From NCBI GenBank assembly GCA_020725405.1, contig DYFB01000093.1, positions 3,183 through 67,182 of the forward strand: a stretch of DNA of 64,000 bases. Direction: 5' to 3'. The notes below the pieces were generated by a model. It ran no database searches and was not told the DNA's origin. It was given only the letters and a program-made list of their open reading frames with translations. A program made the translations under genes and the position numbers. This document shows, piece by piece, positions 6,710 through 42,092 of this stretch (the stretch's first letter is position 1; each line of letters begins with the position of its first letter). Origin of the DNA: Symbiobacterium sp. GTDB lineage: Bacteria > Bacillota > Sulfobacillia > UBA995 > UBA9673.

Positions 6710-9139
6710 GTGTCTATTCTGCCATCCCGGAAGACAGCGGTCGGGGACGGCCTGCGGGCCGCGGCCGCTCTGCTCGTCGTCCTGCTCGTTCTCTGGCCTC
6801 TTTTCGCCCTGGGGCTCTACGACCCCGTGCCCCAGTTCTTCGCCTTCTGGCATGCCGCTCTAGTCCTCGGGCTGGTTTTCATCCTCGCCCTGAGGGAGGA
6901 CCGACCCTTCGTGCTGACCGGCCCCCGGGCGGCCGTGGCGGCCCTCTGGCTCGTTTACGTTCTTTCCACCTTCGTGGCCTCGGTCCCCCGGGCCGCGGTG
7001 CAGGAGGTCATCAAGTACGGCCTGTACGGGGTCGTCTTCCTCTCGGTCTCCGAGCTCGTGCGCTCGACCACGCGGGCGGACGACCTCGCTCCTGAGCCCG
7101 CCTCCGCCCTGCGCCGGCTGGTTTCCCCGCCGGGGCTGGTCCTCGGGGTCTGGGGCGCCGCCGTCATCCTTTCCGTGGCCAGTCTTCTCGCGGCCAGCGG
7201 GGTTCTGCCCTTCGACGTCGTCCGGGCCGGGCGTCTCTACACCTTTCTCCAGTACCCGAACTCGGCCGGCTCGCTGGTCGGGGCCGCCTTCCTGACCGGG
7301 CTCGGCCTCAGGCGGGTCTGGAACGGCCGGGGCCGGGTCGTCGACGCCCTGCTCGCCGCGGGTCAGTGGGCCCTTCTTGTCGTCTTCCTCCTCACGGCCT
7401 CCCGCGGGGCCTGGCTGGTCATGCCCGTGGCCCTGGTCGTGACTTTCTTCCTCTGGCCGCCGGGACGCCGGCTGGCCGCGGTCGGCGACATGGCCGCGAC
7501 GGGCCTCGTGGCCGTCGCGGCCGCGCCTCTTCTCTCCGGAGCCTTCGGCCGGCCGCTCGCCGGCGTCGCGCTCGTCCTCGGCGGCCTGGGCGTGGCCGTC
7601 GCCGCCGGCTGGGTGGCCCGCCGCTTCGCGGCCCTCCCCGCCCGGCGCCAGGCGGCGGTCGTCCTGGGAGTGCTCGTCCTCGTCGGCGGCCTCGGGGCGG
7701 GTCTCCTCGCCACCGGGAACCTGCCGGCGGTCCTGGCCGAGCGGCTGACAAACCTCGACCTTTCCCAGCGGTCGGCCTGGGAGCGGCTGGTCTGGGCAAA
7801 GGACGCGTTCGAGATAGTCAAGGACCACCCCCTCCTCGGCGTCGGGGGCGGGGGCTGGGGCTCGCGCTACTACCAGTACCAGAGCTACGGCTACTTCACC
7901 CGGGAGATACACAACGACTTCATGGACATCTGGGTCGAGACGGGGACGGTCGGGCTCGCCGCTTTCCTCGCCCTCATCGGCGCGTCGGCCTACGTGACCT
8001 GGCGGCTGGCCAGGGCGCGACGTGGGCCGGACCCGGAGGGGTCCGCTCTGGTGGCCGCCCTCGGCGGGGCCTGGGTCATGCTCGTCGTCCACAGCGCTCT
8101 CGACTTCAACCTCGCTCTCGGCTGCGTCGGCATCTACCTCTGGGCCACGTTCGGCACGGTCGACGGCCTGTGGGCGGCCGAGGTCTCCCCCGAGGCCCCC
8201 AGGAGCCGGCCGGCCAGGCGCCGGCGCGGCGCCGACCGTTCCGAGGTAGCGGCGGCCGTCCTCTGGCCGCGCCTGGGCGTGACCATCGTCGTCGCCGCCC
8301 TGGCCCTCCTCTCTCTCAGCCTCTATGGCGGCGCCGCGGCCCGGAGCCAAGCCGGCCGGCTGTTTATGGAGCTTAAGCTGGAGGCCAGCTACGCGGCGTT
8401 CGAGCGGGCGACGAACCTGGACCCCTGGTCGCCCCAGCTCCGGATGGACCGGGCCAGCGCCAGTGAGAAGATGTTCAACGCCACCGGCGATTACGTCTTC
8501 ATCCAGGATGCCCGGAGCCAGATGGAGGCGGCCATCCGCCTCGACCGGTACCACCCGAACCATCACGCTCTCTACGGCTCCTTCGCCCTCCGCTACGGGG
8601 GGATAGAGGTGGCCGTGCAGGCCCTGGAGGAGTCCCTGAGACTCCATCCTTTCGAGCCTAAGCGCTACGAGCAGGTGGCCGAGGTCCACTTCCTGCTCGG
8701 CCGGCACTACCTCACCGGCGGCCAGCGCGACCTCGCTCGCCGCCACCTGGAGCAGTCGGTCGCGGTTCTCGACCGCCTTGCGGCGCAGGCGGCGAAGGTC
8801 CCGGATTATGTCCCCGACCTCCTGAGGCTCCCGGCCCTGACGCCGACCGTGGCCCTCCACACCGGTCAGTCCCTCTCCCTTCTCGGCCGGTGGGACGAGG
8901 CCGCGGACCTCCTGCGCTTCGCCCATGAGACCCAGCTCATGCGCCAGGCCCGCGAGACCGAGGAGTCGGTCCGGGTCAGGAAGATGGAGGCGGCGCTGTG
9001 GCTCGGCCTCGTGGAGGAACGCCGCGGGAACGACGAGGAGGCCCGGACCTACCTGGCCGAGGCCCGGGAGGCCCTCCCCCTGATGGGGGTCATCGTCGAC
9101 CAGCTCCGCCCGCTTCTGGGCCAGGCCGGGACCCCTTAG
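6710..9139 (+). CDS. O-antigen ligase / Wzy_C-family polytopic membrane protein fused to a C-terminal TPR-like domain (candidate O-oligosaccharyltransferase or polymerase)
   Basis: Many TM helices. Wzy_C hallmarks FLTASRGAWLVMPVALV and HNDFMDIWVETGTVGLAAFLALI. The C-terminal ~300 aa are soluble helical repeats (LKLEASYAAFERATNLDPW..., YEQVAEVHFLLGRHY...). Confidence 0.8.
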   Translation: MSILPSRKTAVGDGLRAAAALLVVLLVLWPLFALGLYDPVPQFFAFWHAALVLGLVFILALREDRPFVLTGPRAAVAALWLVYVLSTFVASVPRAAVQEVIKYGLYGVVFLSVSELVRSTTRADDLAPEPASALRRLVSPPGLVLGVWGAAVILSVASLLAASGVLPFDVVRAGRLYTFLQYPNSAGSLVGAAFLTGLGLRRVWNGRGRVVDALLAAGQWALLVVFLLTASRGAWLVMPVALVVTFFLWPPGRRLAAVGDMAATGLVAVAAAPLLSGAFGRPLAGVALVLGGLGVAVAAGWVARRFAALPARRQAAVVLGVLVLVGGLGAGLLATGNLPAVLAERLTNLDLSQRSAWERLVWAKDAFEIVKDHPLLGVGGGGWGSRYYQYQSYGYFTREIHNDFMDIWVETGTVGLAAFLALIGASAYVTWRLARARRGPDPEGSALVAALGGAWVMLVVHSALDFNLALGCVGIYLWATFGTVDGLWAAEVSPEAPRSRPARRRRGADRSEVAAAVLWPRLGVTIVVAALALLSLSLYGGAAARSQAGRLFMELKLEASYAAFERATNLDPWSPQLRMDRASASEKMFNATGDYVFIQDARSQMEAAIRLDRYHPNHHALYGSFALRYGGIEVAVQALEESLRLHPFEPKRYEQVAEVHFLLGRHYLTGGQRDLARRHLEQSVAVLDRLAAQAAKVPDYVPDLLRLPALTPTVALHTGQSLSLLGRWDEAADLLRFAHETQLMRQARETEESVRVRKMEAALWLGLVEERRGNDEEARTYLAEAREALPLMGVIVDQLRPLLGQAGTP

Positions 9140-9195
9140 AGGGCCCGGCAGCGGCGGACCTGAGGTCGGCCGCGTAGGAAGGAGACAGGAGAACC

Positions 9196-10866
9196 ATGCT
9201 TTCCATCGTCGATCTTGTCCCCCACCGACTCGCGGCGGTCCGCCGGCGGTTCACGGCGCGCGCCCTGGCCGCTCTCTTGGTCGTGTCGCTTGCCCTGGCC
9301 CTGCTCGGGACGGCCGCCCTAGGAGCCGGACGGACCGACCGTCCGGCCGCAGGGGTCGACCTTGCCGGCTGGGCCGTTCTCGACGCGGCCCCCGGATGGT
9401 CTCTGGCCTCGGCCGGCGAGACGGCCGGCGGCGCGGCCGGCCCCGTGCCGCCCGCGCTCCCACCGGCCGCCACGGAGGCCGCGAGGGGCCTCCTCACCGA
9501 GGCCTTCGACCTCATCTCCGCGTACTCCCTCCGGACTCCTGACCCCGATGCCCTGGCCAAGGCGGCCATCGAGGGGATGCTCCGCTCCCTCGGGGACCGC
9601 CAGGCCTCCTACTACACGCCCTCCGACTTCGCCCGCTTCATGGCCGAGGTCTCGGGCCGCTACGGGGGTATAGGGGCGAGAGTGGCCATCGAGAATGGCG
9701 CCGTAGTCATCGTCAACACCATCCCGGGGAGCCCGGCCGAGCGGGTCGGGCTTCTCCCCGGCGACACCATCCTGGCCGTGGACGGCCGGAAGACCCAGGG
9801 CCTGGCCCTCGAGGCCGTGGCCGATCTCATCCGCGGGGACCCGGGGACGACGGTGATCCTGACCATCGCCCGTCTCGGCCTCGGCGTCATCCTGGTCGAG
9901 GTGGTCCGGGACGTCATCGAGCTCATCTCGGTCGAGAGCGGGATGCTCGACGACCGGGTGGGCTACATGCGCATCCTGTCCTTCGACGACAACACCGGCC
10001 GGGAGGTTCGGGCCGCCCTGGCCGCCCTGACCGCGGCCGGCATGGAAGGGCTCGTCCTGGACCTGCGCGACAACCCCGGGGGCTACCTCGGGGAGGTCCT
10101 GGCGGTGGCCGAGAACTTCGTTCCCGTCGGGAACCCCGTGGTCTACGTCGACCGCGGGGCTCGGGGCCTCCAGGCCCTTCGCTCCTATGGCTGGGCTCTC
10201 GACCCCATGGGACCCCTTCCCGAGCCGGTCCACCCCCAGTGGCCGGGGCCGACGGTGGTCCTCGTCAACGGCCGGTCAGCGAGCGGGGCGGAGATTCTCG
10301 CCGGAGCCCTGCAGGACTGGAACCTCGCCGTCCTCGTCGGGAGCCAGACCTACGGCAAGGGGTCCGTCCAGACGATCTTCGAGCTCAACAACCACGGCGG
10401 GCTCAGGATTACCACGGCCTGCTACACCTCGGCTCGGGGCCGGGCTATCGAGGGGGTGGGCCTGACCCCTGACGTGATCGTGGAGGAGCCCCCGCCGCCG
10501 GAGCCGATCTTCCAGCTCATCCTTCTCCCCACCCGGTGGACCTACCGGGTGGGGCACGCGGGGAGCGACGTCCTCCTCCTCCAGGCCCGGCTGAGGCAGC
10601 TCGGCTATGATGCGGGACCGGAGGACGGCGTTTTCGGAAAGGAGACCGAGGCCGCGCTCAAGGCCTTCGAGCGCCGGGCCGGGCTCGTCGTTGACGGCGT
10701 CGCCGACCCCGCCACGTGCCGGGCCCTCAACACCGCGCGGCTCCAGGACCATCCGGGCGGGGAGAGCGCGAGCCCGCCCGGGACTCCGGGAGGGGCCCCG
10801 CCGGCCGACCCCGTGCTCGATAGGGGTCTCGAGGTCCTCCGCGGCCTCCTCGGCGGCGGCTCGTAG
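9196..10866 (+). CDS. ctpA: Carboxyl-terminal processing protease (S41 family) with PDZ and a C-terminal peptidoglycan-binding domain
   Basis: PDZ region IPGSPAERVGLLPGDTILAVDG. S41 catalytic region NGRSASGAEILAGALQD..GSQTYGKGSVQT. PG_binding_1-like LLLQARLRQLGYDAGPEDGVFGKETEAALKAFE. SD aggaaggag upstream. Confidence 0.9.
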   Translation: MLSIVDLVPHRLAAVRRRFTARALAALLVVSLALALLGTAALGAGRTDRPAAGVDLAGWAVLDAAPGWSLASAGETAGGAAGPVPPALPPAATEAARGLLTEAFDLISAYSLRTPDPDALAKAAIEGMLRSLGDRQASYYTPSDFARFMAEVSGRYGGIGARVAIENGAVVIVNTIPGSPAERVGLLPGDTILAVDGRKTQGLALEAVADLIRGDPGTTVILTIARLGLGVILVEVVRDVIELISVESGMLDDRVGYMRILSFDDNTGREVRAALAALTAAGMEGLVLDLRDNPGGYLGEVLAVAENFVPVGNPVVYVDRGARGLQALRSYGWALDPMGPLPEPVHPQWPGPTVVLVNGRSASGAEILAGALQDWNLAVLVGSQTYGKGSVQTIFELNNHGGLRITTACYTSARGRAIEGVGLTPDVIVEEPPPPEPIFQLILLPTRWTYRVGHAGSDVLLLQARLRQLGYDAGPEDGVFGKETEAALKAFERRAGLVVDGVADPATCRALNTARLQDHPGGESASPPGTPGGAPPADPVLDRGLEVLRGLLGGGS

Positions 10867-30784: not shown

Positions 30785-32773
30785 GTGCTTGAAGGAGCCA
30801 TGACCACCTCCCGCCGCCGGGGCCGCATCCTTCCCCCGTCGACCGTCCTCCAGAACCGCTACCGCATCCTCCGCCTGCACGACCAGGGCGGCTCAGCAAC
30901 CGTGTACCTCGCCGAGCGTCTCGGGGTGGATGAGAGCGTGCCCCTGGCCGTCAAGGAGCTCAACCCGGACGCGTTCAGCCTGGCCGAGTTCAAGAACGAA
31001 GTCAACGTCCTTTACTCGCTGAACCACCCCAACCTCCCCAAGGTCTATGACTTCTTCGAGCAGGACGGGAAGCACTACCTCGTCATGGACTTCGTGCGGG
31101 GTAAGACCCTCAAGCAGATGGTTCTCGAGGGCGGCGCTCTCGGCGAGGACGAGGCCCTGGACTACGCCCTCCAGATATGCGACATCATGACCTACCTCCA
31201 CCGGCGGGCCGAGCGCCGGATCATCCATCGAGACCTCAAGCCGTCGAACCTGATGCTGACTCACGCCGGCCAGGTGAAGCTCCTCGACTTCGGCATCGCC
31301 CGGGTGCCCGACAGCCGGCTCCCGGGCAATCTGCTCCACGCCTACACCGAGGACTACGCCTCCCCCGAGCAGAAGGAGAACCGGCCGACCGACCAGAGGA
31401 GCGATATCTACAGCTTCGGGGTGACCCTCCGCAGCCTTCTCGAGGGAAGGCTGCCGGGCGTCGATGAGGAGGCGCCCGCGGAGGACCTCTCCCCGCCCCG
31501 GCGCAGGCCCAGGGTGTCGCGGGAGATGAGGCGGATACTCGGACGCTGTCTCCGACCCGACCCCGCCGAGCGCTATCAGAGCTTTGAGGAGCTCGCCCGC
31601 GACCTCCGCTCCTACCGGCAGGCCCGGCGGACCAGAACGGCCCGCCGCCTCGGCTTCGCCGCCGCCGCTCTCGGGGTCGCCAGCCTTCTCTTCCTGGCGA
31701 AGGTCCTCTTCGGCCCCTCCCTCTACCCCATCCTGGGGCCCGAGCGCCTGCAGGTCGGGGTCGGGACGGCCCTGCAGGTCGGCCTCCCGGCCGGATGGGA
31801 AGGCAGCCTCGACGGTATCGTCTGGGACATCATCGACACCCAGGCTCCGGGCCAACCGCGCGAGGTCCAGAGGGGCCGGTACTGTTCATTCGTCTCGACC
31901 GATCTCGGCGTGTTCCAGGTCCAGGCCTACCTCGAAACGAACGGCCGCCGCCGGCTCCTGTCCACGGTGAAGAGGATAGAGGTCTACCCGGCCCTGAGCG
32001 TGCCGCACGAGGTTCTGGTGGGGCAGCGCTTCACTCTCTCCTCGCCCGGGGCGACGGCGGGGGGCGGCCGGGAGTACACCTGGCAGTGGACCATCCGCGG
32101 CCCGATTGAGGGCGCCGACGCCGCCTCGGCCCCGGTGGTGCTCCAGAAGTCCACGACCGAGCCGCGGCTGCGGGCGGAGATGGCGGTGGAGGGGACCTAC
32201 GCGGTGTGGCTGAGCGTCAACGTCAAGGCTCCCGGGGGCCTGGAAGTCTCGACCGCCGCGCCGGCGAAGACGCTGGCCGCGGTCACCCGGCTCGTCGTCG
32301 ACCCCAGCCGCGTCATCAGCCGCAACCCGAGCTTCGAGGAGCAGTACGGCGGCCAGCCGACCGACTGGGTCCTCGTCTATACCGCGCAGCTCACCTACGA
32401 CAAGACGATTGGCCGAACCGGCTCACGCTCCATCCGTTTCACCCCGAAGGCGGGTTCGCCCACTCCCTACGCCGTCCAGCTCCTCCCCCTCGAAGACGGG
32501 CGCTCCTACCGCGCTACCGTCTGGGTCAGGGGCGAGAACGTGGCCGACGGCGGGCGCATCTCCCTCGAGGCCCGCTTCCGGTCGCCCGTCGACGAGACCT
32601 ACGTTCTCAGCGACGAGACGGTGACCGTCGACTGGAGCGGGACTTTCGACTGGCGGCAGATGGCCGTCCACTTCTTCGTTCCCTCCGGAAGCGGCGTCAC
32701 CCTCGAGCTGTACCTGAGGTTCAGCGGCAGCGGGTCCGTCTGGTTCGACGACTGCGTGGTCGAGAAGCTCTGA
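30785..32773 (+). CDS. Transmembrane Hanks-type Ser/Thr protein kinase with an extracellular Ig-like plus carbohydrate-binding-module-like (CBM4/9-type) sensor region
   Basis: Kinase subdomains LAVKEL (Lys), HRDLKPSNLML, DFGIA, ASPEQ. Single TM GFAAAALGVASLLFLAKVLF. C-terminal domain SRNPSFEEQYGGQPTDWVLV...GSRSIRFTP...YRATVWVRGEN...GSVWFDDCVV resembles CBM_4_9 sugar-binding modules. Confidence 0.85.
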   Translation: MLEGAMTTSRRRGRILPPSTVLQNRYRILRLHDQGGSATVYLAERLGVDESVPLAVKELNPDAFSLAEFKNEVNVLYSLNHPNLPKVYDFFEQDGKHYLVMDFVRGKTLKQMVLEGGALGEDEALDYALQICDIMTYLHRRAERRIIHRDLKPSNLMLTHAGQVKLLDFGIARVPDSRLPGNLLHAYTEDYASPEQKENRPTDQRSDIYSFGVTLRSLLEGRLPGVDEEAPAEDLSPPRRRPRVSREMRRILGRCLRPDPAERYQSFEELARDLRSYRQARRTRTARRLGFAAAALGVASLLFLAKVLFGPSLYPILGPERLQVGVGTALQVGLPAGWEGSLDGIVWDIIDTQAPGQPREVQRGRYCSFVSTDLGVFQVQAYLETNGRRRLLSTVKRIEVYPALSVPHEVLVGQRFTLSSPGATAGGGREYTWQWTIRGPIEGADAASAPVVLQKSTTEPRLRAEMAVEGTYAVWLSVNVKAPGGLEVSTAAPAKTLAAVTRLVVDPSRVISRNPSFEEQYGGQPTDWVLVYTAQLTYDKTIGRTGSRSIRFTPKAGSPTPYAVQLLPLEDGRSYRATVWVRGENVADGGRISLEARFRSPVDETYVLSDETVTVDWSGTFDWRQMAVHFFVPSGSGVTLELYLRFSGSGSVWFDDCVVEKL

Positions 32774-32787
32774 GCTGACGACACGAT

Positions 32788-35700
32788 ATGAGCCATTCGG
32801 CAAAGGAAGGCCCCCCCCGCGGCGCGAAGAATACGGCTCACCTCTGGAGGAGCTCCGCCTTGCTCTCCGACCTCGGCCGCACAGCGAGAAGGCTCGGCTC
32901 GGCGAGACGGGTGGTCCGGGCGGCCCTGGCCGCTCTGGTCGCCGCCGGTCTCCTCCTCCCCTGCCTGCCCGCACCCCGACCGCTCCTGGCGGCGCCGCCG
33001 GCGACACCGCCCGGTGCGGCCTCGACGTCGTACGCCGATATCGACGGCCACTGGGCGCGCCCGGAGATAGAGGCCCTGCGGGCCCGTGGAGCCCTCCCCC
33101 CCTCGGGGGAGTTTTTCCGGCCCGACGAGCCGGTGACCCGCGGCGAATTCCTGGCCGACCTCGTCCGGGCCCTGGGTTACGGTCCCGAAGCGGCTGAGCT
33201 CGGCGATCACCCGCCGCCGTTCAGCGACGCCGGGGCCGGCGAGACCATCACTGGGCACCTGAGCGCCGGGGTCGAGCACGGTCTCGTCCGCGGCTACCCT
33301 GACGGGACCTTCCGGGCCGACTGGGAGATAACCCGGGCCGAGATCTCGACCATCCTCGTCCGCCTGAGCGGCCTTGCGCCGGACGCTCCCGGACTGGCCG
33401 CCCTGCCCTTTACCGACCGTTCCGACGTTCCGTCTTGGGCGGCGGGCTACATCGCCGTGGCCTACCAGCGGGGCATGGTCCGGGGGTACCCGGACGGCTC
33501 CTTCCGGCCTGAGAGCGGGGCTACCCGAGCCGAGGCCGCCTGCCTCATCTACCGCGCCGTCCGGCTGAGCGGCCGGCTGTTCGACCTTACCGGCCTGGTG
33601 CGCGAGGGCCCCGGAAGCGGGGACAGTCTCGCCGTGGACCTCTGGCCCGCGGGAACGCCCGGAAGCTACGTCGAAGAGGACGGGACTCTTGTCGTCCCCC
33701 TTCCGGATTCCCTCGGCCCCTCCCCGCCCGGGCCGACCGTCCGCGTCAGGATTTCATCGTCTTGCGTGACCTACCGCGATGGTCGACCGGCCGTCCTCTC
33801 CGCGGTGCGCCCGTTCGACGAGGTCGCCCTCATCCTCGACGAGACCGGGGCCGTCGCCTTCATCGAGGCCCTGCGCCCTGACGGTGTCGGTCTGGTCACC
33901 GGAGTCGGGCCCGGGCTCGCCTGGGTCGCTCTCACTTCCCTGGGCGGTGACGGGCCGGAGCGGGTCTTCGCCATCCTGCCCTGGGCGCCGGTCCTCCCTG
34001 CGGGGGCGGGGGGGCGTGCGCCGGTCCTGGGTGACCTGGTCTACTTCATCCTCGACAGCGCGAGCGGCGCCATTCGGGCTCTGGCCCTCATCGGTCCGGT
34101 CGCCGGGGCTTCCGCCGGCCCGGCCGCCGGATTCTCCGCCGACCCGGCCGCCGGGGCGTTCACCGGCCCGGCCGCCGGATTCTCCGCCGACCCGGCCGCC
34201 GGGGCGTTCACCGGCCCGGCCGCGACGACCGGCCCGGACGTCACCACGAGCGAGGTCATCGACCCGGCGGCCGCCCCGCCCCCGCTTCTGACGCCCGCGG
34301 CGGCCATGGCCCTGAGCGCCGCGGCCGTGAACGCCCCCGCGCTCAGGACCCTTACCGGGGCGAGCGGGCGGGGAGTAACCATCGCCATCGTGGACACCGG
34401 AGTGGACGTGAGTCACCCCGACCTCGCTATGACCAGCGCGTGGGAGCGGAAGATCGTCGACTGGCGCGACTTCAGCGGTGAGGGGGACGTGTCGACGACG
34501 AGGATATCGACGGCCGACGCGGTCGGGATTATCCAGACGGACCTCGGGCCGGCCAAGGTCACCGGCATCGTCTCCCAGAGCGGCTTCTACCACTCCGGGG
34601 TCTTCTCCGAAAGCCAGCTTCAACCGGGTGGGCCTCTCGGCGGGGACCTCGACCGGAACGGGCGGACCGGTGACCGCTTCCTGGTGGTCGCCGTCGACCG
34701 ACGCCTCTCCGGCGTCTACGACACCGTCTACGTGGACACCAACCGCAATCTCGACCTCACGGACGAGGTCCCCCTGCGCCCCTACCGCGATACGGCCCTC
34801 GTGGCCTGGTTCGGCGACGCGGGCCGACCGCGGTCCGAACGCTGCTCCTTCGTCCTGGCTGACATCCGCTCCGACGGCAACCGCGTGACCCTCGGCTTCG
34901 ACGGGAACGGTCACGGGACGCACGTCGCCGCCATCTCTTCGGCCTACGGCTCCTACCGCGGCGGGCTCGACGGTCTCGCCCCGGGCACCCGCGTCATGGC
35001 CCTGAAGGCCCTCCGCTCCTCAGGCGACGGGACCTGGGGGGACATCGTCCGGGCCGTCAGCTACGCGGCCCAGAAGGGGGCCGAGATCATCGTCCTCAGC
35101 GTGGCCAACCTCTCGCACGGGGGAGACCTATCCGCGGAGACGGCGGCCATCGCCGCCGTGGCCGCGCGCTACGGCGTGCTGATCGTCTCGGCCGCTGGCA
35201 ACACGGGGCCGGGCGTGGGCACCGCCCGGGGGCTCGGCGCGTCCCCCGGCATTCTTACCGTCGGGGCCGCGCTGGACCAGGCTATGTGGCAGGCATACTT
35301 CGGCTACGCCGTGGAGGGGCGGACCGTCTGGCCGTTCAGCGCCGTGGGGCCGCGCCCCGACCTTTCCGGAGGCCCGGATGTCCTCGCTCCGGGCTGCGCC
35401 CTCTCGGCCGCGCCACTGTGGCTCGAGCCTCCCGGCTACGTCCAGTCCGAGGGGACGAGCATGGCCGCGCCCCATGTCGCCGGAGTGGCCGCCCTGCTCC
35501 TCGAGGCCCTGCGGCAGACCGGCCGGCCTGCTCCGGTGAGTCTTGTGAGTCTTGTCGAGGAGGCCATCCTGGCCGGAGCCCGGCCTCTGGAGGGCTACTC
35601 CTTCGTCGAGCAGGGGCGGGGGGCGGTCGACGCTCTCCGCTCCTGGGAGTGGCTGGCCGGACCGGCGGCGGCGACCGGGAGCGGTGCGGCGCCGCGCCCC

Positions 35701-37440
35701 CGCGGAACCCTCGGCCTCACCCCGAAGGGCGTCTACGACCGCGACGGATCGTCCGCCAGGGTTCTCGCTGAACTCACGGCGAGAGCCCCGGGCCTGCCGG
35801 CCTGGCTTGACCTCTCCGCCGCGGAGCCGTGGGTCGTCGCGGAAAGGCCGAAGCTCGCCCTACCGGTGGGACTCCCTCGCTCCGTAGGGCTGTCCCTCCG
35901 ACCGGACGGGGAAGGCCTCCACTCCACCTTGCTGGTCGGGTCGCAGGGTTTGGCCGAACTCGTTTCCCTGCCGGTGACGGTGGTCGTTCCCGTGGAGTTC
36001 TCCGCCGCTTCCGGCTGGCGGATCTCCGAGGAGGGGGTCCTCGGCCCAGCCCGCCTGGACCGGTGCTTCTTCCGGGTGCCCCCGGGGGCGAGCGCCCTCG
36101 AGGTTTCCTTCGGTGTCGCCGACGCCGGCGGCGGGAACCACGCCGGTCGGGTCCGGCTCTTCCTCTACGGGCCGGACAGCCACCTGGCGGCGGCCACGGG
36201 CTACGTGGGCCAGGGGACCTCCGACGGCTTCGCCTCTCTGGTCCTCGAGGAACCGGCCGCGGGCGTCTGGGAGGCCGTAGTCTACAGCTCCGCAGCCTTG
36301 TCGGCCTTCGGGCTGGACGATTCGCACTACTGGCTTGAGGCGGCTCTATCGGGGGTCGTCTATGACCTTTCCGGCGCCGGGTGGGAGGTGACCGTCGCGT
36401 CCCCGAGCGTGAGCCGGGTCCGGGCCGACCTGCCTCTCGTCAACATCGGAGACGCCTTCGAGGTCGCCCTCGAGGGTTTCGGTCTCTGGCCGCGCGCCTG
36501 GGACCCCCGGCCCGAAGCGGTCACTCTCGGCTCCGGGGAGACCCTGCTCCGGGTACTCCCGCCCCTGGAGGGGCGCTCCGGGCTCCTCCGGGTTCAGCTC
36601 TGCAACGTCCACGCTGAAGCCTGGGATGAGTCCGAGCCCCCGCCGGATCTCGACCTGACCGTCTTCCAGCGCACCGACACGGGCTGGCGGGAGTTCGCCA
36701 GGTCGTCCGCACCTGGTGTCCGCCAGGAAATTGTTGAAATCGTCGACCCGCCGGGGGGTGAGTACGCCGTCCAGGTAACGGCCTCCGGTGGAGCCGGGTG
36801 GGTTTCCTTCGAGCTCAGGTCCCAGTGGCTCCCGGCCGGCGGTCAGGTTACACCGGTGGTTTCGGAGCTGATCCTCCCCGCCGGAGCCCGCCGGCCTGTG
36901 GCCGTGGTTGTCAGCGTACCGACCGGTGAGGGGGCCCGCCTCGGAGCCCTGAGGCTGAGGGACCGCACCGGCAGTTTCGACCTCCGGGGCGGCCTTTCGG
37001 ACACCGTCAGTCTGCTGCCTCTTACGGTCAGACGCACCGCCCAGTCCATCCGGGTCGTTCTCTCCCAGACCTCGCTCGAGCCGGGCCCGAACCTCCTGAC
37101 CTTCCGGGTCCTGACCGCAGACGGGGTGCCGGTCGCCCGCTTCGCCCTGGAAACCGGGGGTCGTCGCTACGAGGCTGCCGGCGGTTTCGTGACGGTGCCC
37201 TGGCCGGCGGCGGACGAGCCCGGACCGGCCAGGGTCTGGGTGCGAACTGTCCTTCCGGATGGGACAGGGTCGGGGTGGCTGTTTCACCTGCCGGTGGTGT
37301 TAACCCAGCCGGGAGAGCGGGGGTCCCGGCCCCTGGGGCCGGGGGCCCCGGCCTGGCTTGAAGCCGAGGGTTTCCGGCCCCCGGAGCTGGACGAGCTCAG
37401 GGAGCTTTTCGACACGGCCCTCGCGGGAGGGGTCTCCTGA
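32788..37440 (+). CDS. SLH-domain-anchored subtilisin-like serine protease (S8 family), 1550 aa, multidomain
   Basis: Signal peptide. Three SLH repeats (YADIDGHWARPEIEALRARGAL..., FSDAGAGETITGHLSAGVEHGLVRGYPDG, FTDRSDVPSWAAGYIAVAYQRGMVRGYPDG). S8 triad VTIAIVDTGVDVSHPDL (D), GNGHGTHVAAI (H), GTSMAAPHVAGVAALL (S). Long C-terminal beta-rich domains. Confidence 0.9.
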   Translation: MSHSAKEGPPRGAKNTAHLWRSSALLSDLGRTARRLGSARRVVRAALAALVAAGLLLPCLPAPRPLLAAPPATPPGAASTSYADIDGHWARPEIEALRARGALPPSGEFFRPDEPVTRGEFLADLVRALGYGPEAAELGDHPPPFSDAGAGETITGHLSAGVEHGLVRGYPDGTFRADWEITRAEISTILVRLSGLAPDAPGLAALPFTDRSDVPSWAAGYIAVAYQRGMVRGYPDGSFRPESGATRAEAACLIYRAVRLSGRLFDLTGLVREGPGSGDSLAVDLWPAGTPGSYVEEDGTLVVPLPDSLGPSPPGPTVRVRISSSCVTYRDGRPAVLSAVRPFDEVALILDETGAVAFIEALRPDGVGLVTGVGPGLAWVALTSLGGDGPERVFAILPWAPVLPAGAGGRAPVLGDLVYFILDSASGAIRALALIGPVAGASAGPAAGFSADPAAGAFTGPAAGFSADPAAGAFTGPAATTGPDVTTSEVIDPAAAPPPLLTPAAAMALSAAAVNAPALRTLTGASGRGVTIAIVDTGVDVSHPDLAMTSAWERKIVDWRDFSGEGDVSTTRISTADAVGIIQTDLGPAKVTGIVSQSGFYHSGVFSESQLQPGGPLGGDLDRNGRTGDRFLVVAVDRRLSGVYDTVYVDTNRNLDLTDEVPLRPYRDTALVAWFGDAGRPRSERCSFVLADIRSDGNRVTLGFDGNGHGTHVAAISSAYGSYRGGLDGLAPGTRVMALKALRSSGDGTWGDIVRAVSYAAQKGAEIIVLSVANLSHGGDLSAETAAIAAVAARYGVLIVSAAGNTGPGVGTARGLGASPGILTVGAALDQAMWQAYFGYAVEGRTVWPFSAVGPRPDLSGGPDVLAPGCALSAAPLWLEPPGYVQSEGTSMAAPHVAGVAALLLEALRQTGRPAPVSLVSLVEEAILAGARPLEGYSFVEQGRGAVDALRSWEWLAGPAAATGSGAAPRPRGTLGLTPKGVYDRDGSSARVLAELTARAPGLPAWLDLSAAEPWVVAERPKLALPVGLPRSVGLSLRPDGEGLHSTLLVGSQGLAELVSLPVTVVVPVEFSAASGWRISEEGVLGPARLDRCFFRVPPGASALEVSFGVADAGGGNHAGRVRLFLYGPDSHLAAATGYVGQGTSDGFASLVLEEPAAGVWEAVVYSSAALSAFGLDDSHYWLEAALSGVVYDLSGAGWEVTVASPSVSRVRADLPLVNIGDAFEVALEGFGLWPRAWDPRPEAVTLGSGETLLRVLPPLEGRSGLLRVQLCNVHAEAWDESEPPPDLDLTVFQRTDTGWREFARSSAPGVRQEIVEIVDPPGGEYAVQVTASGGAGWVSFELRSQWLPAGGQVTPVVSELILPAGARRPVAVVVSVPTGEGARLGALRLRDRTGSFDLRGGLSDTVSLLPLTVRRTAQSIRVVLSQTSLEPGPNLLTFRVLTADGVPVARFALETGGRRYEAAGGFVTVPWPAADEPGPARVWVRTVLPDGTGSGWLFHLPVVLTQPGERGSRPLGPGAPAWLEAEGFRPPELDELRELFDTALAGGVS
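34115..34210 (+). repeat. Perfect 48-bp in-frame tandem duplication inside the S8 protease gene (encodes AGFSADPAAGAFTGPA x2, with partial third copies on both sides)
   Basis: Identical 48-mers at 34115-34162 and 34163-34210. Confidence 0.9.
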
Positions 37441-37823
37441 TGCCGCAGGCTGTCGCAACTCGCAAGGAGAGGATACTTGTCGTCGACGACGAAGAGAGCA
37501 TGCGGGAGCTGCTCCTGGCCCTGTTCCGCAAGAACGGGTACCAGACCGCCGCCGCCCGGAACGCCGCTGAGGCCCTCGCCCTGGCCGCGGAGATGGACCC
37601 GACCGTGGCCGTCATCGACGGTCACCTGCCCGGCGGAGGGGGCGTCGCTTTCATCCGGAAGTTCCGGGGTAGCTTTCCCGAGATACGGACCGTCTTGATG
37701 ACCGCCTACGACAGTCCGGAGCTGCTCGAGGCTGCTTCCCCGGCCGGGGCCGGGGCGTGGGTCCGGAAACCCTTCGACCTGCTTGAGCTACTCGACAAAG
37801 TGGAGAGCCTCTGCCGGATCTGA
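37440..37823 (+). CDS. Stand-alone response-regulator receiver domain (CheY-like), translationally coupled to the subtilase
   Basis: RILVVDDEESMRELL...TVAVIDGHLPG (acceptor Asp)...VLMTAY...WVRKPF. All receiver motifs are intact. ATG overlaps the subtilase stop as TGATG. No output domain. Confidence 0.85.
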   Translation: MPQAVATRKERILVVDDEESMRELLLALFRKNGYQTAAARNAAEALALAAEMDPTVAVIDGHLPGGGGVAFIRKFRGSFPEIRTVLMTAYDSPELLEAASPAGAGAWVRKPFDLLELLDKVESLCRI

Positions 37824-37863
37824 CCGCTCCCGAACCTTGTCCCGCACGGAGGTAAGACCCAGA

Positions 37864-40089
37864 GTGGAAGGCTTCATAGCCGCCGCCTGTCAGACAGCCG
37901 CCACGGCCGAGCCGGCCGAGGCCGTCCTCAAGGCCGCCGCGGCCGGGGCCCGCCTGGTGGTCCTTCCGGCCCGGGTTCTGGAGAGGTCCTGGAGCCCGCG
38001 CTCCGGCTCTCGCCCGGCCGGGCCCTCCCGGCCCGGCCCGGGTCGGCGGTCGGAGCCCCGACCCCTACCTGGGCGCGAAGAGCTCCTCTCCCGCGCGGCC
38101 GACCTCGCCCGGCGCGCCGGGTGCTATCTTGCCCCCGGCACGGTGGTCGTTCCGCCGTCCGGCGGAGGCCCGGCTTCCCCGGTGGCCTGGCTGTTCTCCC
38201 CGACGGGCGAGCTCCTGGGTGAGCAGGTCGCTACGCACCTGACCCGGGAGGAGGAGGCTGCCGGGGCGGTCCCGGCTGACGAGCTCAGGGTCTTCGACGT
38301 CGACGGGGTCGGCGTGGGTCTCCTCGTCGGCCTCGACGTCTGGGTGCCGGAGGTCAGCCGCATTCTCGCCCTGGAAGGCGCCGTCGTCCTCCTCGCCCAC
38401 CTCGCCCTGCCCGCGCCCTACTCCGAGGCCCGGCAGCTCGCGGGAGTCTGGCAGGAGGTGCAGCAGAACCAGGTCTTCGGCGTCGAGGCCTGCCTCGTGG
38501 GGTCCCGGGACGGGACCACGTACGCCGGTCGCAGCGCCGTGACCGCCCCCTGCGAGATGACTCCCGGCGAGAGCGGCTTCGTGGTCCGGGCTCCCTCCCC
38601 GGAAACCGCGGTGACCCTGCTCGGGGCCATCGACCTCGCGGCCAGGCGGCGGGTCATCGAGAGTTACGACATCTTCGCCGAGCTCAACGTCGGTCTCTAC
38701 CGGCGGGTCTTCCCACAGGTCTACCTGGCCGCCCGCGAGGCCGGAGCCGCCGGGCCCCCCACCGAGCTGGCCGCCGGGCCTCCCACCGAGCCGACCGCCG
38801 GGCCTCCCACCGAGCCGGCCGGCAGGGACCGGGGCGCAGCGGGACAGCCTCCGGGCGACCGGCGTCCGAGGAGGCGTCCGGGGAAAGGACCGGAGAACCT
38901 CGGGTTCAAGGAGCGGCTCTTCCGGCGCTATCTCACCTTCGTCTCCCGTCCGCGCGTAGTCCGGCGAGCGGTCGCCGCTCTCCGGCTCACGCCTCACCCG
39001 AAGCGGCGGAAGAAAGGCCGGTGGTGGACGGAGCCCGGCCTCGGACGGCCCCGCGCGACCTCCAGGGGGGGCGCCGCTGCCGGCGAGCCCCGGCCGCCGC
39101 GGACGGTGCGGGTCGCGGCCATCCAGCTGGAGTCCTTCTACGCGAGGAACGTCACGGACTACGTCCTCCGTCTCGGAGAACGGTTCCGCGAGGCCGTCGC
39201 CGAGGGGGCCGACCTCGTTGCTTTCCCCGAGTACGTTACCCAACCCCTCATCGGGCTCATCCCCGGGGTCGCGCCGCTGGAGGGGGCGGAGAAGGGCCGC
39301 GACCGGAGCCAGGCCAACCCGGGACCGGACAAGGCCGCGGTGGCCCTGGCCGACGTCACCCGGTTCATGGAGCCCATCTTGAGGAACGTCTACTTCACCT
39401 TGTTCGCGGCCCTGGCCGCCGCGGCGCGGGTCTACGTTCTGGCCGGCGCGACCCCGATGCCCGGGGCCGGCGGCAAGGTCTACAACGTGAGCCACCTCTT
39501 CGGACCGGACGGAAGGCTCATCGGAGCCCAGCCGAAGGTGCACCTCTTCCCCCGGGAGCGGACGGAGGGGCTCTCGCCGGGGGAGGACCTCACGGTCTTC
39601 GAGACGGCCGTCGGGCGGCTGAGCCTGCCGGTGTGCATGGACGCCACCTACTTCGAGACCTACCGACTGGCCGCTCTCCTCGGAGCCGAGATGCTCGGCG
39701 CCCCCGTAGCCAACGCCGAGCCCTACAACTGCTGGAAGCTCCTTCGCGGAGCCTGGCCGCGGGTCCAGGAGACCCCGGTCTACGCCGTGCAGTCGACCCT
39801 CGTCGGCGAGTTCCTCGGCCAGGAGCTCAGCGGGAGGGCGGCCGTCTTCGCCCCGCACGAGCTCACTCCGGCGGGCGACGGGGTCCTGGCTTCGTCGGCC
39901 CAGCCCACCGGCCCCGGGCTGGCCGTGGCCGACCTCGATCTTGACGCTCTCGCCCGCTTCCGCGAGGAGCACCCGGTCTTCCCGCGGCTCAACCTCGCCC
40001 TCATCCGGCGCTACCTGCCCCGGATCTACGAGGACTTCGCCCGGCGGCGGGCGGCTTCCGACCAGGGCCAAGAGGAGTCCCGCCCGTGA
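37864..40089 (+). CDS. Tandem carbon-nitrogen hydrolase (nitrilase-superfamily) protein. N-terminal domain catalytically degenerate, C-terminal domain intact
   Basis: Domain 2: VRVAAIQLE...LVAFPEY (Glu)...SLPVCMDATYFE (Cys). Domain 1 aligns (FIAAACQ...ARLVVLP...VGLLVGLDVWVPEV) but has Gly where the Cys should be. Low-complexity linker. Start chosen at the GTG after SD ggagg. The ORF-track TTG at 37783 overlaps the receiver gene. Confidence 0.7.
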   Translation: MEGFIAAACQTAATAEPAEAVLKAAAAGARLVVLPARVLERSWSPRSGSRPAGPSRPGPGRRSEPRPLPGREELLSRAADLARRAGCYLAPGTVVVPPSGGGPASPVAWLFSPTGELLGEQVATHLTREEEAAGAVPADELRVFDVDGVGVGLLVGLDVWVPEVSRILALEGAVVLLAHLALPAPYSEARQLAGVWQEVQQNQVFGVEACLVGSRDGTTYAGRSAVTAPCEMTPGESGFVVRAPSPETAVTLLGAIDLAARRRVIESYDIFAELNVGLYRRVFPQVYLAAREAGAAGPPTELAAGPPTEPTAGPPTEPAGRDRGAAGQPPGDRRPRRRPGKGPENLGFKERLFRRYLTFVSRPRVVRRAVAALRLTPHPKRRKKGRWWTEPGLGRPRATSRGGAAAGEPRPPRTVRVAAIQLESFYARNVTDYVLRLGERFREAVAEGADLVAFPEYVTQPLIGLIPGVAPLEGAEKGRDRSQANPGPDKAAVALADVTRFMEPILRNVYFTLFAALAAAARVYVLAGATPMPGAGGKVYNVSHLFGPDGRLIGAQPKVHLFPRERTEGLSPGEDLTVFETAVGRLSLPVCMDATYFETYRLAALLGAEMLGAPVANAEPYNCWKLLRGAWPRVQETPVYAVQSTLVGEFLGQELSGRAAVFAPHELTPAGDGVLASSAQPTGPGLAVADLDLDALARFREEHPVFPRLNLALIRRYLPRIYEDFARRRAASDQGQEESRP
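38749..38820 (+). repeat. 24-bp in-frame tandem repeat x3 in the CN-hydrolase interdomain linker (encodes AGPPTE[LP][AT])
   Basis: gccgggccYcccaccgagcYgRcc x3, read directly from the sequence. Confidence 0.85.
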
Positions 40090-42092
40090 AGCGGCTGACG
40101 GTCCCTGAGGAGATGGACTTCGCCCGCCGCCTCTACCCGACCGGGAACCATTTCGTCTCACTCCCCGTTGTCGAGGCCGCCGATGCTTCCGTGGACCGGG
40201 TGGGCGTCCTCCATATGGGAGCGGCCGGCCTCGTGGAGTTCGGCGGGCCCCAGGCCGAGCTCGGGGCCGAGACCCTCCCGGCCCTGGAGCCGCTTATCAG
40301 ACCCTTCATCCTGATCGGCGGTCGGACGTCCGGTCCGGGCCGCGGCGCCACGGCGAGCCCATCCTGGCGGCGCCTCTGGGATTGGGTCCCGGCCTTTGAG
40401 TGGCGTGACGAGCCCAGCGGACTTGTCCTCAAGGGGACGCTGCTTGCCCCTGTCTGGGCGGCCCGCGAGGGTCTCCAGTCGCACAAGGGGTTCGTCTACG
40501 TCCTGGAGGTCTCCGGCCCGGCCGCCGGCGGCGCGCCGCCTGAGGACCTCCGACTCGGCCTCACCCTGACGTGGGGGGACCTTCTGGAGACCGTCTACAC
40601 CTCAAGACGCCTCCCCGCCGCTCTGAGCGTCAGGCGGGACCGCTGGACCGGCGGTCCGGTGCTCGAACCCCGCGCGGGCTCAGGGGCCGGCCCGGCGGCC
40701 CTGGCTGTCTCCTTCTCCGTCCCGGGCGAGGACGTGGAGTGGACGGCCCGGACCGACGAGGCCGGAGTCATCCGGGTGGAGATGACCGCGCGCCCGCGGG
40801 GAGGAGCGGCAGCCTTCTACTTCGGCCTCAACCGGGAGGGGGACGGGGCCCGGACGGTTGCCGTCGACCTCGCCCGCCACGGCTGGGAGAGCCTTCTCCG
40901 GGCCACGGGGGCCGCCCTCGCTCCCCTGCGGCGGCCGGTGGCCGGGGAGGACCGCTTGGGAGCCGCCGGCGAAGAATCGAGAGTCCTGGGCGGCCGGCTG
41001 AACCTGAACCTCCTCTTTAACTACTTCTTCGCCGCCGGGCGAACCATCGATACCGAGGAGCTCGTCCTGGTCACCAGCCGGAGCCCGCTGTACTACGTCA
41101 GCGCGGCCTTCTGGGCAAGGGACGCCCTGCTCTGGAGCCTCCCCGGCCTCCTTCTTGTCGACCCCGGCCTGGCCGAGGAAGCTCTGGGCGAGGCCTTCGG
41201 CCGCTACTTCCGTCACGCCGGCATCCACTCGCTCTACATGGACGGAACCCTCCTCTACCCGGGATTCGAGCTGGACGAGCTCGCCGCCTACCCCATCGCC
41301 CTCTGGCGCTACGTCCGGTCGACGGGGGACGTCGCCATCCTGGGACGGCGGGGTCTCGGGCCGAAGCTTCGGCGGATTCTCGACCTCATGGAGGAACAGG
41401 CCCATCCGGACCCGAATATCCACTTGTACCGGACGTTCCTCCTGCCCTCGGACGACCCGGCCACTCATCCCTACGTGACCTACGACAACGTCATGGCCTG
41501 GCGCGCCTTGCTCTGCGCGGCCGACCTTCTGGAGTGGGCGGAGGGCCGGGACGGGGCGGAGCTGAGAGACCGGGCGGAGAGGGTCAGGGCTTCCGTCTAC
41601 CGCCACCTTGTGGTCGACGGCCCGGGAGGCCCGGTCTTCGCTTGGTCGGCCGACCTGGAGGGCGGGGTGGAGCTGGGCGACGAGCCCCCGGGAAGCCTGG
41701 AGCTCCTGCCGTACTACGGCTTCTGCTCGCGGGAGGATGAGGTCTGGCGCCGGACGGTCGGGTGGATCCACTCGCGGGAGAACCCCTACCGCTACCTCGA
41801 CGTCCCGTTCCCGGGGGTGGGGTGCCCGCACTCGCCCCATCCGTTCGTCATGAGCTTATTCAACGCTCTCCTGGGGGGTCTTCCCGAGAGGATCGCCGAG
41901 GCCCGGTCGGTGCTGCTCAAGGCTCCGCTGGATACCGGGCTCGCCTGCGAGGCCTTCGACCGCCGGACCGGGGAGGTTAAGACGGGAGCGGCCTTCGCCA
42001 CGTGCGCGGGGTTCCTGGCCTACGCCATGCACCGGGTTTTCGGGCGGCCGGCGCATGGAGAATACAGGAATGGTCCCGGGTTTGTGGAATAG
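40086..42092 (+). CDS. Hypothetical 668-aa protein, putative six-hairpin (alpha/alpha)6 glycosidase-like; family not assignable from sequence alone
   Basis: Central block LNLNLLFNYFFAAGRTIDTEELVLVTSRSPLYYVSAAFWARDALLWSLPGLLLVDPGLAEEALGEAF is reminiscent of GH63/GH125/GH15-type barrels. The GTG start overlaps the upstream stop. Confidence 0.4.
   Translation: MKRLTVPEEMDFARRLYPTGNHFVSLPVVEAADASVDRVGVLHMGAAGLVEFGGPQAELGAETLPALEPLIRPFILIGGRTSGPGRGATASPSWRRLWDWVPAFEWRDEPSGLVLKGTLLAPVWAAREGLQSHKGFVYVLEVSGPAAGGAPPEDLRLGLTLTWGDLLETVYTSRRLPAALSVRRDRWTGGPVLEPRAGSGAGPAALAVSFSVPGEDVEWTARTDEAGVIRVEMTARPRGGAAAFYFGLNREGDGARTVAVDLARHGWESLLRATGAALAPLRRPVAGEDRLGAAGEESRVLGGRLNLNLLFNYFFAAGRTIDTEELVLVTSRSPLYYVSAAFWARDALLWSLPGLLLVDPGLAEEALGEAFGRYFRHAGIHSLYMDGTLLYPGFELDELAAYPIALWRYVRSTGDVAILGRRGLGPKLRRILDLMEEQAHPDPNIHLYRTFLLPSDDPATHPYVTYDNVMAWRALLCAADLLEWAEGRDGAELRDRAERVRASVYRHLVVDGPGGPVFAWSADLEGGVELGDEPPGSLELLPYYGFCSREDEVWRRTVGWIHSRENPYRYLDVPFPGVGCPHSPHPFVMSLFNALLGGLPERIAEARSVLLKAPLDTGLACEAFDRRTGEVKTGAAFATCAGFLAYAMHRVFGRPAHGEYRNGPGFVE

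Follow-up and report, generated by a model that had tools for sequence, protein, structure and literature searches.

A fused pair of nitrilase-superfamily domains, one apparently dead and one intact, in a contig of Symbiobacterium sp.

The window analyzed here, a stretch of 64,000 nucleotides (nt) from contig DYFB01000093.1 of Symbiobacterium sp., contains a gene (37864..40089, stop codon counted in) for a 741-aa protein with two carbon-nitrogen (CN) hydrolase domains in tandem. The first domain (D1) has lost the catalytic residues of the nitrilase superfamily, while the second (D2) keeps them. All window features given below lie on the forward strand unless stated otherwise. The gene was defined from the list of open reading frames (ORFs), from the Pfam model CN_hydrolase (PF00795) and from an identical 741-aa NCBI protein (P0001), which comes from a Bacillota metagenome-assembled genome (MAG) and is annotated only as 'nitrilase-related carbon-nitrogen hydrolase'. 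The Pfam match (E = 5.7e-33; 114.8 bits against a cut-off of 23.2) falls into two stretches, and the protein belongs to the nitrilase superfamily both by profile match and by fold.

The ORF list gives the frame as 37783–40089, which would allow a longer protein starting at the TTG codon at 37783. This start was ruled out because the N-termini of 18 homologs line up at the GTG codon at 37864, and because a Shine-Dalgarno-like GGAGG (37848..37852), read directly from the sequence, lies 11 nt upstream of that GTG. The G+C content of the gene is 74%, compared with 69% for the window, which accounts for long shadow ORFs in the other frames. Two of these, an antisense ORF of 698 aa (38065–40161, reverse strand) and a +2-frame ORF of 307 aa (39021–39944), were set aside as such, since it is the sense frame that has the strong family matches.

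Domain 1 (aa 1–290; 37864..38733) was recognized from phmmer searches of PDB sequences, from family alignments and from an AlphaFold2 model in which its predicted local distance difference test (pLDDT) values are mostly >85. Residues ∼75–274 align to the Pyrococcus amidases PH0642 (1j31) and 3ivz. In the alignment to 1j31, the nucleophile Cys146 in VGVMICFDWFFPE corresponds to Gly156 (38329..38331) in VGLLVGLDVWVPE of domain 1. The replacement of the nucleophile by Gly, proposed in the initial annotation of this DNA, is thus borne out, and the other catalytic positions are lost as well. Ala36 (37969..37971) takes the place of the first catalytic Glu, where LPE has become LPA (LVVLPA) in the alignment to 3ivz and 1j31, and Ala123 (38230..38232) takes that of the catalytic Lys (QVATHL versus YRKIHLF). 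As Ala36, Ala123 and Gly156 fill the three positions, domain 1 is without the whole Glu-Lys-Cys triad and not the Cys alone, i.e., it is a member of the superfamily by fold but not by catalysis.

A count of the same positions was made over 139 distinct D1 sequences, of which 96 have Gly, 26 Ser and 5 Cys where the nucleophile would be. At the Lys position, 130 have Gln and none has Lys, and 6 have Glu at the first Glu position. The second Glu position (Glu130 in the window protein) keeps its Glu in 105/139. Three signature motifs of D1, Q-x-Q-T-H, G-x-D-x-W-x-P-E and W-Q-E-V-Q-Q-N-Q, are found in the window protein, with the exception that the second Gln of the otherwise invariant Q-x-Q-T-H is Ala123. 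Domain 1 also contains a Cys230-Glu231 pair (APCEM) that is invariant in the 19 closest homologs. Across the wider family, position 230 varies (Cys in 47, Val in 23 and Leu in 6 of 83), and Glu231 is found in 78/83 and is also kept in D2 as AP-x-EL. The idea that Cys230 might be a relocated nucleophile was dropped on the basis of this wider census.

Domain 2 (core aa 412–741; 39097..40086) was recognized from the best Pfam stretch (aa 416–700), PDB alignments and Foldseek, and is an intact CN-hydrolase domain with a family-specific insertion of roughly 60 aa after the FPE motif. It could be aligned to mouse Nit2 (2w1v) and PH0642, and its catalytic residues were matched to those of 1j31 and 2w1v. 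These are Glu456 in FPEY (39229..39231), Lys558 in PKVHLF (39535..39537), the second catalytic Glu, Glu565, at Lys+7 (39556..39558), and the nucleophile Cys591 in PVCMDATYFET (39634..39636). Among the aligned D2 sequences they are conserved in 154/154, 155/158, 157/158 and 157/158, respectively. The Glu, Lys and Cys that the initial annotation had assigned to domain 2 therefore stand, with Glu565 as an addition, and so does its description of a pseudo-enzyme and enzyme in tandem, with a D1 devoid of the triad and a D2 that keeps the tetrad. Taken over the pooled D1 and D2 sequences, the residue census indicates that D1 is an old and stably maintained pseudoenzyme, for which the Cys-to-Gly change is the hallmark and the norm of the family.

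Judged from their sequence, the motifs of domain 2 are amidase- or carbamoylase-like rather than those of a true nitrilase. The diagnostic nucleophile motif of the branch 1 'true' nitrilases is Cys-Trp-Glu. As domain 2 has C-M-D instead of C-W-E, and as the nitrilase models score far below their cut-offs, it is not a branch 1 enzyme. The best NCBIfam score was 88.3 bits for NF040852 (cut-off 500), and TIGR04048 scored 18.5 (cut-off 502.6). The models for N-carbamoylputrescine amidase (AguB, TIGR03381; 72.1 bits, cut-off 410), NAD synthase (28.9, cut-off 479) and Lnt (13.6 bits, cut-off 132.9) likewise stayed below their thresholds, and the N-terminal polytopic membrane domain of Lnt is absent from the window protein. 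The two domains are each other's closest relatives, with 36% identity over 190 aa (E = 4e-32), and the best match of either domain to solved structures has an E-value of ∼1e-10 to 1e-15. They share a C-terminal tail of the form L-N-x-x-L-Y/I-R-R-x-x-P-x-x-Y. The window protein also contains the D2 signature C-M-D-A-T-Y-F-E-T and the K-E-K-x-F-x-x-Y-L arm that is found N-terminally in D2.

The region between the domains consists of three parts. The first is a Pro/Gly/Ala/Arg-rich spacer (aa 291–343; 38734..38892) with pLDDT <50, which is variable or absent in homologs and occupies the part of the sequence where stand-alone D1 proteins have already ended and stand-alone D2 proteins have not yet begun, i.e., the fusion junction. 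It holds the AGPPTE repeats and the stretch RRPRRRPGKG. The second is a conserved helical arm (aa 344–384, LGFKERLFRRYLTFVSRPRVVRRAVAALRL; 38893..39015) with pLDDT ∼88–96 and helices at 348–360 and 363–371 (pLDDT ∼90 over aa 348–371). When the window protein from aa 330 was compared with ten stand-alone D2-like proteins, the arm aligned to their first 10–45 residues, and it is accordingly regarded as the N-terminal extension of the D2 subunit and not as linker. The third is a lineage-specific basic insertion (aa 385–411, HPKRRKKGRWW...; 39016..39096), which is gapped in most homologs and has pLDDT <50 at aa 385–409. Both basic stretches pointed out earlier, RRPRRRPGKG and KRRKKGRWW, are thus present, but they are lineage-specific, low in complexity, predicted to be disordered, and variable or absent in homologs.

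The tandem repeat in the spacer (38746..38821) was scored by Tandem Repeats Finder with a period of 24 bp, 3.2 copies, 92% matches and a score of 131. The repeat had been described as a perfect 24-bp triplication, which holds for the peptide, where AGPPTE occurs three times exactly, but not for the DNA, where the three units differ at three bases. Within one cluster of >90% identity, P0026 has one AGPPTE copy, and P0001, P0025 and P0027 have three, with substitutions. Variants of the unit among these >90% identical proteins include GPSTEPVS and ARPPTEP. Other family members have unrelated low-complexity repeats at the same place. Because the copy number varies within the cluster and unrelated repeats take its place elsewhere, the repeat is probably a tolerated, slippage-prone and strain-variable tether, with no sign of a specific function. 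A tandem peptide repeat, GPAAGFSADPAAGAFT x2, is also present in a low-complexity spacer (protein aa ∼455–500) of an SLH/S8 protease encoded at 32788–37440 of the window. It likewise suggests that repeats in interdomain linkers expand easily in this high-G+C genome.

A word-indexed search gave 18 further double-domain proteins with 39–63% identity to the window protein, all from Bacillota MAGs. An alignment of the resulting 19 proteins was used for a hidden Markov model (HMM) search of 1.84 billion cluster representatives, in which 497 representatives were found at E ≤ 1e-30. Among the best 150 of these 497, three classes could be distinguished. About 13 are double-domain proteins of 554–814 aa that match both halves of the profile. 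About 75 are stand-alone D2-like proteins of 330–410 aa that match the D2 half together with the conserved part of the 'linker', and about 60 are stand-alone D1-like proteins of 270–300 aa that match the D1 half. The stand-alone D1-like proteins have L-P-[AGQ] in place of LPE, Q-x-Q-T-H for the Lys strand and G/S/Q/N in place of the Cys, as well as the W-Q-E-V-Q-Q-N-Q helix.

Stand-alone D1-like and D2-like genes are found side by side. In locus L009, called genes for a D1-like (332–1210) and a D2-like protein (1212–2288) are adjacent, and in L093 the two called genes overlap by 4 nt. Locus L010 has the synteny of the window, yet encodes a 288-aa D1 and a 362-aa D2 separately. Pairing was scanned from both sides, with loci parsed by D1 and D2 HMMs. 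With a D1 motif as seed and one genome per GTDB species, 80 loci (L011–L090) were obtained, 4 of them without room at the contig end. A D2-like gene lies directly downstream or is fused in 74 of the remaining 76, and the partner is missing in two (L084 and L085). With D2 motifs as seed in JGI metagenome contigs, 80 loci (L094–L173) were obtained, 12 of them without room at the contig end, and D1 lies directly upstream or is fused in 67/68, with the partner missing in one (L097). With more than 140 independent loci showing it, the D1/D2 pattern is not a chance feature. The window protein follows the same rule, with a D1 devoid of the triad immediately upstream of, and fused to, an intact D2. 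Tandems of this kind had been called uncommon, which is correct for the fused form only, since the same modules form a common pair of adjacent genes.

The genome loci span Bacillota, Chloroflexota/Anaerolineae, Armatimonadota and a few other groups, and almost all are MAGs. Sulfobacillus thermotolerans Kr1, a cultured organism whose genome is complete, has a distant pair (L088; CP019454.1, ∼1,411,028–1,428,331; ORFs 7572–8348 and 8111–9343). The D1 of this pair is the most reduced one, as its N-terminal half is lost; alpha-5, alpha-6, the PCE loop and the C-terminal tail are kept, and an intact D2 follows (VVCNDATYFET). Two distant matches, P0023 (824 aa) and P0024 (631 aa), have a CN-hydrolase fused to gamma-glutamyltranspeptidase, or to alpha/beta-hydrolase/peptidase S9-type domains, and thus show further kinds of fusion within the superfamily.

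Fused genes occur in at least four separate clades of a neighbor-joining tree of D2 domains, a rough tree in which these groups lie far apart. The first clade comprises the window gene, L001, L002 and L008, the second L003, L004, L005 and L063, the third L006 and L007, and the fourth L066 from Chloroflexota. Split pairs lie between the fused clades, and the window clade has the split L010 as its sister. The window gene is a fusion of two neighboring paralogous genes that are separate in most carriers. Recent internal tandem duplication was considered as the origin of both domains and was ruled out, as separate D1-like and D2-like genes exist across phyla. For the same reason, the duplication is taken to be ancient and the single ORF to have arisen by fusion. 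Recurrent fusion of adjacent genes suggests, as a Rosetta-stone type of argument, that the products act as one physical unit.

The AlphaFold2 model, based on the alignment of 19 sequences, has a mean pLDDT of 80.7 and a predicted template modeling score (pTM) of 0.81, with 121 of the 741 residues disordered. As the pTM is this high despite the disordered residues, the arrangement of D1 relative to D2 is confidently fixed in the model. A Foldseek search with the model against the PDB returned nitrilase-fold chains only (6ypa, 2w1v, 5h8j, 6lei, 4izv, 6mg6, and others), with E-values down to 6e-18 and target TM-scores of 0.65–0.77. All were single nitrilase-fold chains, and no two-domain template was found in the PDB by this search. 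Nitrilase-fold enzymes are normally dimers across the helices alpha-5 and alpha-6, the dimer or 'A' surface. In domain 1, alpha-5 (aa 156–170) and alpha-6 (aa 188–202; together 38329..38469) are the most conserved elements, with mean column entropies of 1.05 and 1.49 bits compared with ∼2–3 bits for most other elements, and they are proposed to form a dimer-type interface.

Signal peptide, lipobox and transmembrane segment were all absent from the window protein. The highest Kyte-Doolittle mean over 19 aa is 1.83 and lies inside a core strand/helix, and strand beta-1 of the fold already starts at residue 3. Judged by these features the enzyme is cytoplasmic. Directly downstream, a GH125-like glycoside hydrolase gene (40086..42092; 668 aa; Pfam PF06824, E = 5.8e-18) overlaps with its start the stop codon of the hydrolase gene (GTGA). 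The Pfam match of this protein (65.4 bits versus a cut-off of 23.4) covers only profile positions 205–405 and the C-terminal ∼200 aa, and the N-terminal ∼430 aa are unmatched. A PSDD motif (aa 454–457) aligns near Asp220 of CpGH125 (5m7i), and the Glu in C-E-A-F, at the position of the base motif of the family, is kept; the PSDD Asp and the C-E-A-F Glu are candidates for the acid/base catalytic residues. No signal peptide was found in the GH125-like protein. The long form could constitute a GH125 subfamily whose specificity is new.

Neighbors were grouped by unsupervised clustering of the flanking ORFs, and as the metagenome flanks extend over 4 kb only, the metagenome counts are lower bounds. 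The most frequent conserved neighbor of the D1/D2 pair is the GH125-like gene (∼600–750 aa), which is usually directly adjacent and was found in 21/80 genome loci and at least 41/80 metagenome loci. MFS transporters, mostly directly upstream, were found in 26/80 genome loci and at least 3/80 metagenome loci. An MFS_2 transporter of the glycoside/sugar type lies directly downstream of D2 in at least 32/80 metagenome loci; this type was counted in the metagenome set. As the conserved neighbors are a cytoplasmic GH125-like glycosidase and MFS/MFS_2 importers, they point to cytoplasmic processing of an imported glycoside. The proposal that the protein is an amidase acting on a surface polymer or peptide does not fit with these family-wide neighbors, nor with the absence of a signal peptide and of transmembrane segments.

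Several further arrangements were seen around the pair. With the MFS_2 gene downstream of D2, seen among metagenome loci L130–L169 (e.g., at 3377–4771 of L155), a four-gene module of GH125-like gene, D1, D2 and transporter results. The distant fused member P0017 has the gene order GH125-like, MFS, hydrolase, EamA. In four metagenome loci, including L125 (2214–2939), the pair is directly followed by a gene for a PIG-L/LmbE-type de-N-acetylase, which adds to the hints at a modified (amino)sugar derivative as the substrate. Two D2-like genes (in L091 and L092) adjoin a divergently transcribed receiver gene and a rubrerythrin gene. PHP/Schlafen-like, MogA, Lon and HD-domain neighbors were also considered as family-wide partners, and they turned out to reflect clade-specific synteny instead.

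The window clade has a gene order of its own, with a Ser/Thr kinase, an SLH/S8 protease, a CheY-like receiver, the double hydrolase, the GH125-like gene, transaldolase, Rho, a LysM/M23 peptidase and L31. The upstream block (30785–37823), which consists of the Ser/Thr protein kinase (662 aa), a giant SLH-anchored S8 subtilase (1550 aa) and the receiver, is kept in L001, L002, L008 and L010. For the stand-alone receiver gene (37440..37823; Pfam Response_reg, E = 1e-20), linkage to the hydrolase gene is confined to this clade. In L001, L002 and L008 the end of the receiver gene and the start of the hydrolase gene overlap by 8 nt, which may reflect co-transcription or a form of regulation peculiar to the window clade. 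The synteny with transaldolase, Rho and L31 had raised the suspicion that the receiver is a Spo0F ortholog. NCBIfam gave generic receiver matches only, and it was left as CheY-like.

On this evidence, we regard it as reasonably probable that the window protein works in the cytoplasm as an amidase of the heterodimer type, with a dead partner in a structural role, and takes part in the breakdown of an imported glycoside. The dead D1 would replace the second subunit of the usual nitrilase-fold dimer, so that the window protein would be an intramolecular pseudo-heterodimer with a single active site in D2 at Cys591. The halves could be clamped together with the help of the C-terminal tails and of the helical arm at the N-terminus of D2, and the Pro/Gly/Ala-rich AGPPTE segment would be a flexible tether made by the fusion. 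D1 would be needed for the folding, activity or specificity of D2. The recurrent fusion, the pTM of 0.81 and the conservation pattern lend indirect support to such a heterodimer, in which D2 would depend on D1 for activity. The glycoside would enter by the MFS/MFS_2 transporter and would also be cut by the adjacent GH125-like glycosidase. The most likely reaction of D2 would be the hydrolysis of an amide or a group of the carbamoyl type, carried either by a small glycoside or by its aglycone. Uronamides or solutes of the amidated glycosyl-glycerate type are guesses for the substrate.

A number of observations weigh against this proposal. The contact of D1 and D2 by the canonical alpha-5/alpha-6 surface is deduced from the pTM and from conservation, and since these helices are conserved in ordinary active family members too, their conservation in D1 is only suggestive. 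No curated NCBIfam model reached its cut-off with the window protein. D2-like genes without an adjacent D1 are found in L091 (2962–4023), L092 (1407–2468) and L097, with the N-terminal arm present, and the D1-like genes of L084 and L085 are without a D2. D1 may therefore be dispensable in some carriers, or its gene may lie at another place in the same genomes. The window clade has no adjacent transporter. Moreover, about half of the loci have neither a GH125-like nor an MFS gene within the available flanks, so the suggested glycoside pathway does not cover the whole family.

Other explanations of the domain pair were weighed against the heterodimer-type amidase. The initial annotation had itself proposed that domain 1 is a regulatory or substrate-binding module. 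A non-catalytic helper role is indeed reasonable, and a ligand-sensing or allosteric domain 1, in which the remnant of the pocket binds substrate, product or effector and tunes or targets domain 2, would explain why pocket residues (Gln121, Thr124, His125, Asp158 at Cys+2, Glu231 in 78/83 and Glu130 in 105/139) are conserved beyond the need of a bare scaffold. Most of the conserved D1 residues, however, are structural positions conserved in all CN hydrolases (the H after K, the D at C+2, the PE at C+6/7 and the N in alpha-6), and the Sulfobacillus D1 remnant is still paired with D2 although the N-terminal half with the Q-T-H strand is gone. We therefore consider a sensing role unlikely as the main explanation, while noting that it is compatible with the heterodimer model and does not exclude it. 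Retention of residues in domain 1 could also be taken to mean that this domain is alive with a different catalytic site, e.g., Cys230-Glu231 or His125, and that the protein is bifunctional. Cys230-Glu231 does not vary among the 19 closest homologs, and His125 and Glu231 are nearly invariant family-wide. Since Cys230 is replaced by Val or Leu in part of the wider family, and Glu231 is a structural residue shared with D2, such a live site is very improbable, and we know of no nitrilase-fold enzyme that works without the Glu-Lys-Cys triad.

The location and the reading of the gene itself could be questioned as well. An amidase acting at the surface, where it would trim a polymer or peptide of the cell wall while its basic linker binds the anionic envelope, would be in line with the SLH/S8 protease and the LysM/M23 peptidase in the neighborhood of the window clade and with the net charge of +18 of the linker. 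Export features are missing altogether, though, as are the basic stretches in most homologs. The SLH protease and M23 genes are neighbors in the window clade only, unlike the family-wide cytoplasmic GH125-like enzyme and importers, and with transaldolase, Rho and L31 in between, the proximity of the hydrolase and M23 genes is explained by housekeeping synteny. This leaves the surface reading with hardly any likelihood. Finally, the double-domain ORF might be an assembly or frameshift artifact, or a decaying gene, joining two real neighbors: fused and split forms coexist in close relatives (the window and L010), and the junction consists of low-complexity repeat DNA prone to slippage. The same fused architecture nevertheless recurs across independent assemblies and data sources (NCBI, JGI, ENA, and Logan), in 19 protein clusters altogether, both halves are strongly conserved, and the four members of the >90% identity cluster share the fusion with in-frame variation of the repeat only. 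An artifact of this kind is so implausible that we give it next to no weight.

Among known systems, the amidases of the PH0642, Nit2 (omega-amidase) and Nesterenkonia NitN type (1j31, 6ypa, 2w1v, and 3hkx) are the closest in structure. They have the same alpha-beta-beta-alpha fold (Foldseek E-values 1e-15 to 6e-18, target TM-scores 0.73–0.77) and the same Glu-Lys-Glu-Cys tetrad as domain 2, and they are the best solved-structure sequence matches for both domains. The identity is ∼20–24% only, and domain 2 adds the helical arm and the ∼60-aa insertion after FPE. These amidases are dimers or tetramers of identical active subunits, whereas the second 'subunit' of the window system is a paralog devoid of the triad, either separate or fused. 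Joining of a CN-hydrolase domain to another module is also seen in glutamine-dependent NAD synthetase, in Lnt and in NitFhit, a Rosetta-stone protein that is the classic case of a fusion indicating a functional link. In those proteins the partners have unrelated folds (NAD synthetase, a membrane domain and Fhit, respectively), while the partner in the window protein is a second, degenerate CN-hydrolase domain.

Association of different paralogs is found in the NIT4A and NIT4B nitrilases, which are the closest functional analogy inside the superfamily. Both of these keep the catalytic triad. They are plant branch 1 nitrilases in large homo-oligomer-like spirals. They are not encoded by adjacent bacterial genes, and no fusion of them is known. 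For the NIT4A/NIT4B complexes of Poaceae, activity depends on two different paralogous subunits associating, as summarized in PMC3537687 (citing Jenrich et al., 2007). The closest analogy in logic is given by the prozymes. In trypanosomatid AdoMetDC/prozyme and deoxyhypusine synthase, as outlined in two papers (PMC5201418 and PMC3663545), a gene was duplicated, one copy lost catalytic residues, and the two form an obligate heteromer with one functional active site. The parallel is one of logic between unrelated folds and organisms, and a dependence of D2 on D1 is only presumed for the window protein.

The literature searched for tandem, double, pseudo or heteromeric nitrilases, or for GH125 with a CN hydrolase, gave no account of this pair. 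A widespread pseudo-nitrilase/amidase gene pair, of which the window gene is a fused member, thus seems to be undescribed. More tentatively, and with less confidence than we place in the heterodimer itself, the D1/D2 pair could be an undescribed broad class in Bacillota, Chloroflexota, Armatimonadota and other groups, whose heterodimeric amidase would obligately require the pseudo-nitrilase as the subunit that confers specificity or activity. The pair, a divergent long GH125-like glycosidase and a GPH/MFS_2 transporter might jointly make up a new module for the catabolism of a glycoside with an amide or carbamoyl group.

Members of the nitrilase superfamily are generally regarded as homo-oligomeric enzymes. 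If the proposal is true, D1/D2 would be the first bacterial 'prozyme'-type heteromer in the nitrilase fold. This would change the annotation of the two halves, which are now called 'nitrilase-related carbon-nitrogen hydrolase' or 'predicted amidohydrolase', and also the expression strategy in biocatalysis, where the catalytic subunit alone may be inactive. The linkage to a GH125-like gene and a sugar transporter flags an uncharacterized catabolic module that is common in Bacillota and Chloroflexota from the subsurface, sediments and hot springs. To our knowledge, GH125 has so far been known only as a family of exo-alpha-1,6-mannosidases, and its linkage to the pair gives it a candidate new activity. 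The value of the finding lies mainly in annotation, in the strategy for enzyme expression and in an entry point to a glycoside-catabolic module.

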